Position numbers and translations under genes: made by a program. Shown here piece by piece: positions 2,298-34,716 of a stretch of DNA of 64,000 bases. The first letter of the stretch is position 1, and each line of letters begins with the position of its first letter. Under the pieces are notes generated by a model. The model worked only from the letters and a program-made list of their open reading frames with translations. It made no database searches and was not told where the DNA came from. Origin of the DNA: Dehalococcoidia bacterium. GTDB lineage: Bacteria; Chloroflexota; Dehalococcoidia; Bin125. The stretch spans positions 775,462-839,461 of the forward strand of contig OZ241982.1 in NCBI GenBank assembly GCA_965204335.1. Reading direction: 5' to 3'.

Positions 2298-3008
2298 CTA
2301 CCCCGCCGCCGTCTCCCCCGGCCGATCACCCGCGTCGTCCAGCTGGTCGCGCAGCCGACGCAGGTCGAGCCGCAGCTCCGACACGGCCAGTTCCAGCGAC
2401 TCAATCCGATCATGCTCCGGGTCGGGCAGGCGCAAGATCGTGTCGTCGCCGGGATCGTAGTACGCCACCACATGCCCCGGCACGCCGACGACCGTCGAAT
2501 GAGGCGGCACGTTCGAGACCACCACGGCCCCTGCGCCGATCCGCGCGCCCGTGCCGATCGAGACCGCGCCGATGATCGACGCGCCCGCGCCGACCAGGAC
2601 GTCGTCCCCGAACATCGGGTGACGCTGCATGCGCATCGTCGAGGTGCCGCCCAGGGTGACGCCCTGGTGCAGGTGACAGCGCTTCCCCAGCCGTGCCGTC
2701 TCACCGATCACGACGCCCATTCCATGGTCGATCAGGCACGGCGACGCGATCTGTGCGCCGGGATGAATCTCAATCCCGGTCATGTTGCGACCCAGGTGCG
2801 AGAGGAACCTCGGCAGCACCGGCACGCCGAGGCGAAGCAAGGCTCCCGACACCCGGTGCAGCATCAGCGCGTGCACACCGGGATAGGCGAGCAGGACCTC
2901 GAGCCAGTTCGTCGCCGCCGGATCGCGCTGCATCGCGAACCGGATGTCCGACCACGTGTCGTCAACGAACGAGTTGTACCAGCGGATCAGCCGAAACAGG
3001 TACTCCAT
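2298..3008 (-). CDS. cysE: Serine O-acetyltransferase with a C-terminal coiled-coil-like tail
   Basis: Left-handed beta-helix hexapeptide repeats (GIEIHPGAQIASPCLIDHGMGVVIGETARLGKRCHLHQGVTLGG). Position between ispDF and cysS as in Firmicutes. Confidence 0.85.
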   Translation of the reverse strand: MEYLFRLIRWYNSFVDDTWSDIRFAMQRDPAATNWLEVLLAYPGVHALMLHRVSGALLRLGVPVLPRFLSHLGRNMTGIEIHPGAQIASPCLIDHGMGVVIGETARLGKRCHLHQGVTLGGTSTMRMQRHPMFGDDVLVGAGASIIGAVSIGTGARIGAGAVVVSNVPPHSTVVGVPGHVVAYYDPGDDTILRLPDPEHDRIESLELAVSELRLDLRRLRDQLDDAGDRPGETAAG

Positions 3009-4209: not shown

Positions 4210-5187
4210 TCACGTCGGGTCCTCGTCCGCCGCCAACTGGGCGAAGACCATCCGCCCCGCCTGTGTCTGGATCACCCGCTTCACGACCAGTGAGCGCATC
4301 TGGCCGATCGACTCCGCTCCTTCCTCGACCACCACCATCGTCCCGTCCGCCAGATAGCCCACGCCCTGGTGTTCGCCGCGTCCGCGCTCGATCACCTCGA
4401 CCGTCAACGACTCGCCCGGCAGGACGTTGGTCTTCACCGCATTGGCCAGCACGTTGAGGTTGAGCGTTCTCACACCCTCCAGCTCGGCGACCCGTGCCAG
4501 GTTCGCGTCCGTCAGGGCCAGCGCTGCACCGCGCTCGACCGCCATGCGCACCAGCCGCGCATCCACATCGCCGTCGGTCTCCGACGATCCGTCGTCGACG
4601 ATCTCGGTCGTGACGGTCTCTTCTCCCTGCAGCCGTGACAGCAGCTCCAGTCCGGCTCGGCCCCGGCCCCGCCTCAGCGCGTCCGAACTGTCCGCCACCC
4701 GGCGCAACTCATCGAGTACGAAGCGGGGCACGACGATATTCGCAAGAATGAAGCCGCTGCTCGCCACCTCGGCGATACGCCCGTCGATGATTGCCGAGGT
4801 ATCGAGGATCACTTCCGAGGGCGCCGGCGGGCGGGTCAGCGCCACCGACTCGGCCCGACCTCGGACCGTGTTCACGAACCGCTCCACCTCGGCGCGCCGA
4901 CCCAGCGCCACGCCGACTCCGATCGGCGCCAGCAGAATCGCCACGCCGATTGGCGCAAAGTCGCCGGCCGCGCCGGGCAGGTTGTCGAGCACGGTCGACA
5001 GCAGCGACGCGGCGACCAGCGCGGCCACCAGCCCAAACCCGCCCAGCAGGATCTCCAGCGTCGACAGCGAACGCCAGATGCCCTGCCGAAACCACGTGAC
5101 CGGATAGAGCAACCGGTCCCAGAACCGAAACGCTGCCTCCAGCACGACAGTCCCCAACAAAGAAAATGGCGGCCATGCGGCCGCCAA
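4210..5187 (-). CDS. yacL: YacL-like membrane-anchored PIN plus TRAM domain protein
   Basis: N-terminal transmembrane helices, PIN core (VILDTSAIIDGRI...VVPRFVLDEL) and C-terminal TRAM (GESLTVEVIERGRGEHQGVGYLADGTMVVVEEG). Conserved synteny yacL-ispD-ispF-cysE-cysS. Confidence 0.8.
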   Translation of the reverse strand: MAAAWPPFSLLGTVVLEAAFRFWDRLLYPVTWFRQGIWRSLSTLEILLGGFGLVAALVAASLLSTVLDNLPGAAGDFAPIGVAILLAPIGVGVALGRRAEVERFVNTVRGRAESVALTRPPAPSEVILDTSAIIDGRIAEVASSGFILANIVVPRFVLDELRRVADSSDALRRGRGRAGLELLSRLQGEETVTTEIVDDGSSETDGDVDARLVRMAVERGAALALTDANLARVAELEGVRTLNLNVLANAVKTNVLPGESLTVEVIERGRGEHQGVGYLADGTMVVVEEGAESIGQMRSLVVKRVIQTQAGRMVFAQLAADEDPT

Positions 5188-5282
5188 TCAGTCCAGAGCG
5201 GTCAACCGCCCAATAAATCCGGGCGCATCCCTGCGCACTCCAATCATACAGGATCCCACCACCCCCGTCCCACCACCCTCCC

Positions 5283-5450
5283 TTCCGGTCCCCTCTCCCC
5301 GAGGGAGAAGTCTGCCCCGCACTTGATGCGGAGGGTGAGAGCCTGCCCCCGCGTAGGCGGGGGGCGAGGGCCCTCCGACCCACCGCACACTCCCTCCGAT
5401 GCCCCGCACTTGATGCGGGGACAACCGGGCCTCCCCGCCTGCGCCCCGAG
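5283..5450. repeat. Composite interspersed repeat cluster (degenerate module C, module A copies, a B-like hairpin)
   Basis: cccctctccccgagggagaag, ccccgcacttgatgcgg, cccccgcgtaggcggggg, ccccgcacttgatgcgggg. Each shares modules with ten or more other loci in the window. Confidence 0.85.
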
Positions 5451-5650
5451 GCCGTGTCGACAAGCACCATGTCGTATAGGGACGCCCTAGCGCGACTCCA
5501 CAGGTACGCGACCAGCGCCGGCGGCAAAGTAAGAAATCCGGTGAAGCCGGTGTCGATCACTGCATCGATCTCGCGCACCGCACCCGCCGGGCCCTGCACC
5601 GTCAGCCTGATTACTGCCTCATAGGCGGGGCTAACCGCGCCCTCGATCAC
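5445..5650 (-). pseudogene. Retropepsin-like (clan AA) aspartic protease fragment, 3' end replaced by the repeat cluster
   Basis: GTG start overlapping the upstream stop as GTGA. IRLTVQGPAGAVREIDAVIDTGFTGFLTLPPALVAYL carries the DTG catalytic motif typical of bacterial retropepsin-like domains. The frame then runs into repeat-derived low-complexity sequence after about 70 aa. Confidence 0.45.
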
Positions 5651-5916
5651 CCGGCGCGTCCCAGAGGGCGGCCACCCATGTGATGCAGCGTCCGATGCCC
5701 AACCCTCAGCAGCCAGACGTCGACGGCCTCTGGCCGCTGCGCGCGCAGACCCTTGGACGCCGCCCGCACGTCCTCAGCCAGCGCCCAGCAGGCGCTCTCC
5801 ACGTCGATCGCGACATATGCCCCGGCATGATCCGGCTCCACTTGCGCCCGCACAACGCGCTCGTAGATCTCGTCGCCCAGACGGGCGATCTCCTCGGCAG
5901 ACCGCGACTCCGACAT
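5647..5916 (-). CDS. Small acidic protein of unknown function (DUF5678-like pattern), translationally coupled to the aspartic-protease fragment
   Basis: 89 aa. The GAYVAIDVES...VWLLRVG pattern resembles small partner proteins of the DUF5678 type. 4-nt GTGA overlap with the downstream gene. Confidence 0.55.
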   Translation of the reverse strand: MSESRSAEEIARLGDEIYERVVRAQVEPDHAGAYVAIDVESACWALAEDVRAASKGLRAQRPEAVDVWLLRVGHRTLHHMGGRPLGRAG

Positions 5917-5967
5917 CGAAGGCTCCTCCGCTTCAGTATGTCAGACACACCATCTCGTCCCCAACGA

Positions 5968-6214
5968 CCCTCCCTCCGGTTCCCTCCCCCCGAGGGAGAA
6001 GCCTGCCCCGCACTTGATGCGGGGCCCAGACCTCCACCGTCGAACCCAAACCAAAGCTCTCCCCCAACTCCGCCATCCCCTCCGATCCCATCTCCCCCCG
6101 CCGCCAGGTGGGGGGAGATGCCGAAGGCAGAGGGGGGCTCCCTCCGCCCCAGACCCAACACCGAAGCCTGCCCCGCACTTGATGCGGGGATGTCACCAGG
6201 CGACAGAACGCCCC
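5968..6214. repeat. Composite interspersed repeat cluster (modules C-like, A, B, A plus an atgtcacNNNgacagaNNgcccc tail)
   Basis: ccccgcacttgatgcgggg occurs twice. The 60-nt cctccgatcccatctccccccgc...ggggggagatgccgaaggcagaggggggc block is nearly identical to 46657..46714. Confidence 0.85.
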
Positions 6215-6292: not shown

Positions 6293-6703
6293 ATGTCCAA
6301 CAGCACCGCAAGCACCCAGGCCAAGCCACCCCTTGACTTCACCAGCGACGCCATCGTCAACCAGCTCCGACACCAGGCCACCAACGGCCCCGCCTACGTC
6401 CAGCACAGCGCGACCAAAGCACTCGCCCATATCAAGGGCCTCTACGCCGAAGCCCACTACGAGGCCAGGCTCGCGTTCGAGACCGCCCGCCAGAAGCTCC
6501 GCCACGCCGACGGCAACGTCGCCGAACAGACCGCAGACGCGGAGCCGTCCATCGCCCAGCAGATCGAAGACATCCGCACCGGCCGCACCATCGTGACGCC
6601 CGAAATGCTCGGCGAGTACGGCGTGCCGGTCGGCGCGGCATCGGAAGACAAAGAACCGGACGACGAAGACGGGAGTTCCCATGGCGAAGACGAACCTCCA
6701 TAA
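6293..6703 (+). CDS. Hypothetical protein (136 aa) with an acidic C-terminus
   Basis: Strong GC3 codon bias. No recognisable family. Confidence 0.55.
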   Translation: MSNSTASTQAKPPLDFTSDAIVNQLRHQATNGPAYVQHSATKALAHIKGLYAEAHYEARLAFETARQKLRHADGNVAEQTADAEPSIAQQIEDIRTGRTIVTPEMLGEYGVPVGAASEDKEPDDEDGSSHGEDEPP

Positions 6704-6872
6704 TCCGCACACCTCGCAGCAGCTCGGCCAGATCCGGCTGCTGCACGGCGATCGGCGTTTTTTCCCGACCGCCCGCCAACTCGAGCTCTACCAGGCGCTC
6801 CTCGACGCCCCCTGTCCGCCCGACGACTCCGAGCCCGGCGCGGACCGCCCGCCGTGTTCTCTGGTAGCGTGA
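6681..6872 (+). CDS. Small hypothetical ORF (63 aa) overlapping the previous gene by 23 nt
   Basis: GC3-biased codons. Could be a remnant or small gene. Confidence 0.3.
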   Translation: MAKTNLHNPHTSQQLGQIRLLHGDRRFFPTARQLELYQALLDAPCPPDDSEPGADRPPCSLVA

Positions 6873-34565: not shown

Positions 34566-34716
34566 TCCGGTCCCCTCTCCCTGAGGGAGAGGGCTAGGGT
34601 GAGGGCCCCGCTCCATGGGTGAAGATGCCGCGACTCTTCCCCTCTCCCCCCGCTTCGCGGGGGGAGCCTGCCCCGCACTTGATGCGGGGATGTCACGTAG
34701 TGACAGAGGGGGGCAA
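34566..34716. repeat. Composite repeat C plus B plus A plus tail between the two glnA genes
   Basis: ggtcccctctccctgagggagagggctagggtgagggcc, ...ctccccccgcttcgcggggggag, cctgccccgcacttgatgcgggg, atgtcacgtagtgacagaggggggc. Confidence 0.85.

Follow-up and report, generated by a model that had tools for sequence, protein, structure and literature searches.

A decaying copy of a conserved cassette of a small protein and a retropepsin-like protease in a Dehalococcoidia genome, with a possible toxin-antitoxin-like role

Near the beginning of a 64,000-nucleotide (nt) stretch of a Dehalococcoidia genome (contig OZ241982.1; "the window" refers to this whole stretch), two small genes overlap on the minus strand, and the second of them begins as an aspartic protease and then ceases to resemble one. 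The locus raises the question of what such a pair of genes might do, and of how its protease gene came to be broken. The original prediction was that a small acidic protein resembling DUF5678 is translationally coupled to a retropepsin-like aspartic protease, and that the protease was truncated by the insertion of repeats. Our analysis bears out the pair, but not the proposed cause of the truncation. On balance, and by analogy with known two-gene systems, we lean towards the view that a conserved bicistronic cassette, present here in a decaying copy, would act as a toxin-antitoxin-like pair, consisting of a protease and its cognate inhibitor.

The upstream gene, which we call ORF-A (open reading frame A), is intact. 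As predicted, it encodes 89 amino acids on the minus strand (5647..5916 in the list of open reading frames), beginning with an ATG at 5916-5914 and ending with a TGA at 5649-5647. This TGA overlaps the GTG start codon (5650-5648) of the second gene, ORF-B, in the sequence GTGA. ORF-B carries AVIDTGFTGFLTLPPALVA, and the putative catalytic motif DTGF, at residues 33-36, lies at 5554-5543 on the minus strand. Upstream of ORF-A is a conserved 5' leader (5917..5947, minus strand; TGTCTGRCATACTGRAGYGGAGGAG), in which GGAGGAG at 5929-5923 forms the Shine-Dalgarno sequence. This leader is the sole upstream block that is common to the window and the related loci L089, L090, L002 and L176, and a promoter scan of the region upstream of ORF-A found no sigma-70-like promoter. 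The G+C content by codon position is 0.80/0.51/0.81 in ORF-A and 0.71/0.50/0.77 in codons 1-48 of ORF-B, and both profiles are coding-like, as in neighbouring bona fide genes. The mechanical list of open reading frames continues ORF-B to 313 amino acids (4709..5650), but the rest of this frame has values of 0.66/0.70/0.70 and then 0.51/0.84/0.70, which are not coding-like. By this measure, the second reading frame is coding only in its first 48 codons.

The end of the coding-like part can be placed with the help of L001, a 617-bp metagenome scaffold that encodes an ORF-A identical to that of the window. From 6023 down to 5507, L001 and the window are identical at 516 of 517 positions, and the identity ends exactly at 5507. 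Beyond this point L001 reads LVAELELPLEGIGRATLGDGSEVTFPFYDVAVLWDG, i.e., a normal protease, while the window diverges. The closest full-length orthologues (P0121-P0128) have 122 amino acids, end in GGRVVVESR followed by the stop codon, and are 83-90% identical to the L001 fragment; the window's ORF-B is 80% identical to one of them, P0124, in residues 1-50 only. On the minus strand of the window, codon 48 (GCG, ending at 5507, so that the remnant occupies 5507..5650) is followed by the 4 nt TACC (5503..5506), which match neither side of the junction in L001, L176, L177, L089 or L090, and then by the 17-mer TGTGGAGTCGCGCTAGG (5502-5486). An exact-string search established that this 17-mer comprises the last codons and TAG stop codon of the gene in L090, L002 and L009. 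The native 3' end of the protease gene, encoding VESR and terminating in a TAG at 5489-5487, is consequently still present at 5487..5502. We take the sequence that separates the native stop codon from the first repeat hairpin (5425..5486, minus strand) to be native 3' flank, which shares TAGGCGTC and CGGCCTCGG.GCG.AGG with the 3' flank of L176; this assignment was made by visual comparison and is weaker than those of the other parts.

From start codon to native stop codon, the remnant measures 164 nt, as opposed to 369 nt in the orthologues; the loci compared for this purpose were those of intact 122-amino-acid orthologues, namely L089, L090, L176 and L177. On this comparison, the protease gene has lost approximately 205 nt net by an internal deletion. 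The number of lost nucleotides is not divisible by three, which puts the native TAG in a different frame from codons 1-48 and lets the reading frame run on artefactually. The likeness to proteases, which had been predicted to cover the first 70 amino acids, therefore ends at residue 48, and the sequence from 5506 to 5441 consists of the junction, the out-of-frame gene end and native 3' flank. The lost part, residues 49 to approximately 117, takes in the flap, the latter half of the barrel and the C-terminal strands, without which the remnant cannot be a functional protease. A tblastn search of the window found no trace of protease residues 51-122. All of this agrees with the prediction that the protease copy is a pseudogene, and the 313-amino-acid frame (4709..5650) is best explained as a read-through artefact. 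In annotating the window, ORF-A should accordingly be treated as a real gene and ORF-B as a deletion pseudogene, and the 313-amino-acid frame should not be called. In alignments made with MAFFT and with a global pairwise aligner, the bases following the breakpoint came out scattered, and the junction was therefore set by exact-string search and direct reading. We also considered a simple deletion mediated by GGTCG microhomology. Although GGTCG is found at both end points in intact relatives, such a deletion does not reproduce the observed junction, and we rejected it.

What kind of protease was lost? Residues 14-50 of the window's ORF-B, which include AVIDTGFTGF, match the NCBIfam model TIGR03698 ("clan AA aspartic protease") with an E-value of 5.5e-5 and 23.4 bits, and the motif DTGF at 5543-5554 falls within this match; the predicted relationship to clan AA is thereby supported. 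The intact orthologue in locus L004 matches the same model at positions 4-104 of 107 (E=2.7e-14, 53.4 bits). The curated cut-off of TIGR03698 is 57.35 bits, so the L004 protein falls just below it, and the window's remnant is below it as well. Neither product of the window has a match in Pfam. The Pfam models PF13650 and PF13975, which had been proposed as a check, match intact orthologues below their cut-offs and do not match the window's products; TIGR03698 is the model that recognises the protease. In an alignment of 39 homologues, D33, G35 and G38 show no variation and T34 shows almost none. Judging by these matches, the protein encoded by gene B belongs to a divergent subfamily of the single-domain clan AA peptidases of prokaryotes (COG5550 / TIGR03698).

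An AlphaFold2 model of the intact protein P0124, built from the 39-sequence alignment, has a predicted local distance difference test score (pLDDT) of 93.5. Foldseek searches of the PDB with this model retrieved, with a probability of 1.00, the proteases of human T-cell leukaemia virus type 1 (HTLV-1; 2b7f) and equine infectious anaemia virus (EIAV), APRc of Rickettsia conorii (5c9b) and the RVP domains of Ddi1. Template modelling (TM) scores are approximately 0.5-0.63 overall and approximately 0.55-0.63 for HTLV-1 protease and APRc. A complete retropepsin fold, including flap, second psi-loop and C-terminal strands, is thus predicted for intact P0124, and the window copy lacks it. The B family is very acidic, with a median isoelectric point (pI) of 4.2, and its sequences have no N-terminal extension before the first strand. 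We read intact B as a cytoplasmic, single-domain retropepsin-like protease of approximately 122 amino acids. By analogy with other retropepsins, it would act as a homodimer.

The small partner is more difficult to place. A search with the single ORF-A sequence identified 662 clusters of homologues at 60-86% identity, none of which has a Pfam domain, and an exhaustive profile search, with clustering at 50% identity, brought up 2303 clusters at or below an E-value of 1e-3, including 577 with E<=1e-10. ORF-A is thus a real gene that belongs to a large family for which there is no Pfam model. Its sequence has no match in Pfam, NCBIfam or PADLOC, and neither a sequence-profile search nor Foldseek found a meaningful match in the PDB. 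The AlphaFold2 model (pLDDT 83.5) contains a helix (residues 7-26), a beta-hairpin (34-47), a second helix (50-60) and a strand (67-71). From residue 81 onwards the mean pLDDT is 43, and the C-terminal tail is probably disordered according to this model. The tail, with the pattern RVGHRxLHHxGGRP, is nonetheless one of the best conserved stretches of ORF-A. The description of ORF-A as acidic holds only mildly (pI 6.05).

The assignment of ORF-A to DUF5678 (PF18929) was tested and rejected: the window's protein has no match to this model even at E<=1. Among close ORF-A relatives, 11 of 34 have sub-threshold matches (best E-value 4.4e-4, with a gathering cut-off of 23.2 bits) over the beta-hairpin region, and none of 54 diverse relatives matches at E<=0.1. 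Moreover, the ORF-A family is approximately 40 residues longer than the DUF5678 model, which has 49 positions.

If the pair is a functional unit, its two genes should be found together elsewhere. No second copy of the cassette occurs in the window, but intact pairs are found in relatives. We studied two sets of loci. The A-selected set consists of the best 80 genome loci of 354 ORF-A relatives among species-representative genomes, of which 79 could be assessed. The B-selected set consists of the best 80 metagenome loci, of which 77 have room upstream for a partner. In the A-selected set, an intact B lies directly downstream of A in 51 loci, typically with a 4-bp overlap; B is split across frames in 7 loci, present only as a fragment in 9 and absent in 12. 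Hence A is kept and B is broken or missing in 28 of the 79 loci. In the B-selected set, A is upstream of B in 76 of 77 loci and partial in the remaining one, and is absent in none. The B lesions are independent of one another: some remove the N-terminal part with the DTG motif (L009/L002, L022, L038 and L061) and others the C-terminal part (L027, L077, L085 and the window). The orphan ORF-A genes are essentially full-length, with a mean hidden Markov model (HMM) score of 159 bits, versus 163 bits for paired ones. In a related Dehalococcoidia genome (loci L002, 4001-4384, and L009, 3001-3381), a different, independent deletion has generated P0004, a 127-amino-acid in-frame chimera that joins ORF-A residues 1-81 to protease residues from about 73 to 122 and lacks the DTG motif.

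The pairing extends across phyla. Record titles place the cassette in Chloroflexota (Dehalococcoidia, Caldilineaceae and Tepidiformaceae), in Actinomycetota (Ca. Poriferisocius and Ca. Aldehydirespirator) and in Pseudomonadota (metagenome-assembled genomes of Gammaproteobacteria and Pseudomonadales). Isolate names, which are all we used for this purpose, suggest that sponge microbiomes are a common source. In Cyanobacteriota, plasmids of Nostocales encode a 90-amino-acid "hypothetical protein" that overlaps a "clan AA aspartic protease" (its RefSeq name) by 4 bp; the ORF-A homologues on these plasmids are 24-35% identical to the window's ORF-A. In Nostoc/Anabaena PCC 7120 the pair (WP_044523651.1 and WP_010999818.1) is encoded on pCC7120alpha. 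Gene coordinates give the same 4-bp overlap in L003-L008, L089 and L090 (in L090, the A gene is at 2735-3004) and in the cyanobacterial plasmids. These observations sustain the idea of a module that couples a small protein to a retropepsin-like aspartic protease by overlap.

The genomic contexts are those of an accessory element. The window's copy has a PIN/TRAM gene on one side and a radical SAM gene on the other, and differs in this from the copies in its closest relatives, which are surrounded by genes for purine biosynthesis. L004 and L005 have identical ORF-A proteins and 125-amino-acid proteases that are 99% identical, at different chromosomal loci. Several genomes have two loci per record, and L031 (2163-4463), L054 (491-1989) and L055 (1702-3617) each contain two or three divergent pairs in one genome, in tandem or head-to-head arrays; the L031 pairs are 53-61% identical to the L004 query proteins. 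On plasmid pNSMS101 of Nostoc sp. MS1 (L092, 2205-2842), the cassette is located between pglZ and pglX of a bacteriophage exclusion (BREX) system. On plasmid pANSO36B of Nostoc cf. commune (L174, 4705-5339), its neighbours are RelE/ParE and PIN pairs, the gene of a Uma2 endonuclease and DUF1156/helicase genes. Homology between loci extends only from approximately 35 nt before the ATG to approximately 65 nt past the stop codon, and we saw neither a transposase nor terminal inverted repeats. Finally, the gene calls for 150 representative clusters include 18 putative A-A tandem polypeptides (P0326, with 259 amino acids, and P0241 are among the predicted polypeptides with multiple ORF-A domains), one A-A-A polypeptide and one full A-A-B fusion, P0356, a predicted gene product of 313 amino acids with two ORF-A domains and a full protease domain.

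What might such a pair do? Small overlapping genes, an accessory and multi-copy spread, sites on plasmids and in defence islands, and decay of B with retention of A, never the reverse, favour a toxin-antitoxin model. The cassette would then work as a type II toxin-antitoxin or as an addiction or defence module. In this model B would do the harm, as a protease acting on targets in the cell, and A would be its cognate neutraliser. A would most likely bind B through its conserved tail and block the active site or the formation of the dimer. Loss of B with retention of A as an orphan "antidote" would be the expected harmless route of decay, and a tandem A-A arrangement would match a target that is a homodimer. 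The toxicity of B, its interaction with A and its inhibition by A are thus what we infer from analogy. The A-A-B fusion P0356 and the conserved, low-confidence tail of A are indirect hints that neutralisation might occur by direct binding.

Like type II toxin-antitoxin systems such as VapBC and RelBE, the cassette is a bicistronic operon of two small overlapping genes in which the presumed antidote comes first. Its distribution is likewise mobile or accessory: there are multiple copies and variable loci, and it occurs on plasmids and in BREX- and toxin-antitoxin-rich islands. In the best-hit samples described above, B never occurs without at least a partial A, orphan A genes do occur, and in these known systems too the downstream gene is often lost and the upstream gene kept. 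Unlike them, the pair has no known toxin or antitoxin domain, and A has no recognised DNA-binding fold.

It is important to consider several points that weigh against a toxin-antitoxin-like role. Most type II antitoxins have a DNA-binding domain, whereas none is recognisable in A, which also has no fold match in the PDB, and neither protein matches a known toxin-antitoxin or defence model. PADLOC and PHROGs yielded no match for either protein, and the cassette was not found in IMG/VR; these searches therefore do not connect the pair with any described defence system or phage. The one-sidedness of the decay arises in part from sampling, given that both sets are best-80 hits and that selection through B favours loci in which B is intact. 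Some of the "frameshifted" B genes may be errors of long-read assembly. In addition, the intact 3' end used for comparison with the window was taken from relatives and not from the window's own strain, which makes the length of the deletion approximate.

The main rival to this reading is that A is a substrate or pro-protein and B its dedicated maturation protease, in the manner of a miniature Gag-Pro. B would cut the tail of A or separate A-A-B polyproteins, and the active A so released would itself be the working product of the cassette, not an antidote. Processing of their own polyproteins is the classical activity of retropepsins, and several properties of the cassette would fit such a role: the tail of A is conserved and predicted to be unstructured, the single polypeptides of the A-A, A-A-A and A-A-B types resemble polyproteins, and B is always behind A. 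However, A remains full-length with a full HMM score in the 28 of 79 loci in which B is missing or broken, which would be hard to explain if A had to be matured by B, barring the action in trans of a paralogous B. The variable loci, the sites on plasmids and in defence islands, and the tandem arrays also fit a selfish or defence module better. We therefore regard a processing pair as unlikely, although it deserves to be considered seriously.

Returning to a toxin-antitoxin-like role, we compared the cassette with known systems that contain related proteases. The COG5550/COG3577 group of non-viral clan AA peptidases, exemplified by AAB90625 of Archaeoglobus fulgidus, has been described as one about which "little is known" (PMC2642776). 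The intact orthologue resembles the COG5550/TIGR03698 proteins in being a single domain of approximately 120 amino acids with a D-T-G-F motif, and it spans the model end to end. It differs in scoring below the cut-off (and the window copy in having only 48 residues), and the apparently obligatory upstream partner is not mentioned in PMC2642776. The predicted fold of the intact orthologue is like those of HTLV-1 protease, APRc, EIAV protease and the Ddi1 RVP domain, but sequence identity to these proteins is only 12-19%. The cassette's protease also differs from them in its surroundings: it has no polyprotein, membrane anchor or ubiquitin-like domain, and is a free-standing protein whose gene follows a dedicated small one. 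Among characterised bacterial enzymes, RimB of the RimABK system (PMC11957791) and the Rlo proteases of Pseudomonas aeruginosa (PMC12239564) are likewise single-domain aspartic proteases of the retropepsin type; like APRc, they occur in contexts other than that of the cassette. RimB has the operon partners RimA and RimK, and the Rlo proteases are secreted; in the portions of these two sources that were available to us, neither has an 89-amino-acid upstream partner or toxin-antitoxin-like genomic behaviour. Small proteins with retropepsin domains also adjoin type III CRISPR (clustered regularly interspaced short palindromic repeats) loci in Sulfolobales (PMC3973734).

In the literature that we searched, we found no aspartic protease that acts as a toxin, and nothing that describes the ORF-A family or its pairing with B; the module is thus as little studied as had been supposed. 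The free-standing prokaryotic retropepsin-like proteases of the COG5550 / TIGR03698 type have been familiar as sequences since the 2000s and, to our knowledge, have no assigned role. The present analysis adds that in one large subfamily of them the protease gene nearly always follows that of a specific small partner, which has no match to a known fold, and that the genomic behaviour of the pair is like that of a selfish or defence module. We consider the wider cassette to be a credible and testable candidate for a new toxin-antitoxin-like family. A more specific proposal is that it represents an undescribed family of the toxin-antitoxin or abortive-infection type, whose effector is a cytoplasmic retropepsin-like protease held in check by a small protein with a novel fold, and that horizontal transfer has distributed the cassette among symbiont-rich Chloroflexota, Actinomycetota and Pseudomonadota and cyanobacterial plasmids. 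We advance this more specific proposal tentatively, and would not be surprised if some or all of it proved wrong. If it were true, aspartic proteases would join the known chemistries of toxins and effectors, and COG5550-type prokaryotic retropepsins would acquire their first biological role. The annotation "hypothetical protein + clan AA aspartic protease" can now be read as an experimentally testable hypothesis.

The lesion in the window also admits other explanations than a deletion in the organism. One is that the deletion is an artefact in the assembly of a metagenome-assembled genome, and that the organism carries an intact cassette; indeed, the L001 scaffold, which comes from another sample, retains the undeleted sequence despite being 516/517 identical. 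However, errors in long-read genome assemblies are mostly insertions or deletions of 1-2 nt, and a clean loss of 205 nt with a novel junction is unlike them. Comparable, independent B lesions are also frequent in other genomes, including the different deletion in L002/L009. An assembly artefact is therefore very improbable. A search for an intact paralogue from the window's own genome yielded one candidate, L081, which was rejected given its G+C content of 0.598, versus 0.666 for the window.

The explanation originally offered, that insertion of a repeat cluster at 5283-5450 truncated the protease after approximately 70 residues, is contradicted by the data: hairpins like those of repetitive extragenic palindromes (REPs) do lie shortly downstream of the remnant, at 5394-5420 and 5257-5331, but protease homology stops approximately 85 nt before the nearest of them, the last five native codons, the stop codon and approximately 65 nt of native flank stand between breakpoint and repeats, and the missing 205 nt, which an insertion would have left downstream, were not found in the window by tblastn.

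The repeats are real, and they do bracket the gene pair, which supports the claim that the pair lies in a repeat-flanked accessory stretch. Two REP-like 75-nt elements in direct orientation (family D2, plus strand, 81% identical) lie on the downstream side of the cassette at 5257..5331, with the hairpins CTCCCCGAGGGAG and CCCCGCACTTGATGCGG, and on its upstream side at 5948..6022; the latter copy is also present at the start of L001. A further hairpin copy, CCCCGCACTTGATGCGGGG, is found at 5394..5420 (plus strand), with other copies at 6163-6189 and 34666-34689. It is the nearest REP-like hairpin to the cassette's downstream end, and begins approximately 65 nt downstream of the native stop codon. 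The hairpin GCCTGCCCCGCACTTGATGCGGGG occurs five times in the window (5310-5333, 5397-5420, 6001-6024, 6166-6189 and 34666-34689), versus zero expected in shuffled sequences, and four of these copies cluster around the cassette. Their positions indicate that the repeats are intergenic neighbours of the cassette and not the cause of its truncation.

Some other elements were observed in the surroundings. A second palindromic element (6089-6120, CATCTCCCCCCGCC..GGTGGGGGGAGATG) resembles an element that is present on both sides of the cassette in the related locus L002. Downstream of the cassette is a terminator-like hairpin with a T-run (5167-5186, minus strand; TGGCGGCCGCATGGCCGCCA TTTTCTTTGT). 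As this hairpin lies inside the called start of the PIN/TRAM reading frame (4210..5187), the true start of that gene is probably further downstream. Finally, the same repeat-rich stretch contains two small reading frames on the plus strand, of 136 amino acids (6293-6703) and 63 amino acids (6681-6872), which overlap by 23 nt. Neither has a match in Pfam or NCBIfam. Their G+C contents by codon position are coding-like (0.68/0.46/0.82 and 0.73/0.48/0.83, respectively), and they may constitute a second unannotated accessory pair.

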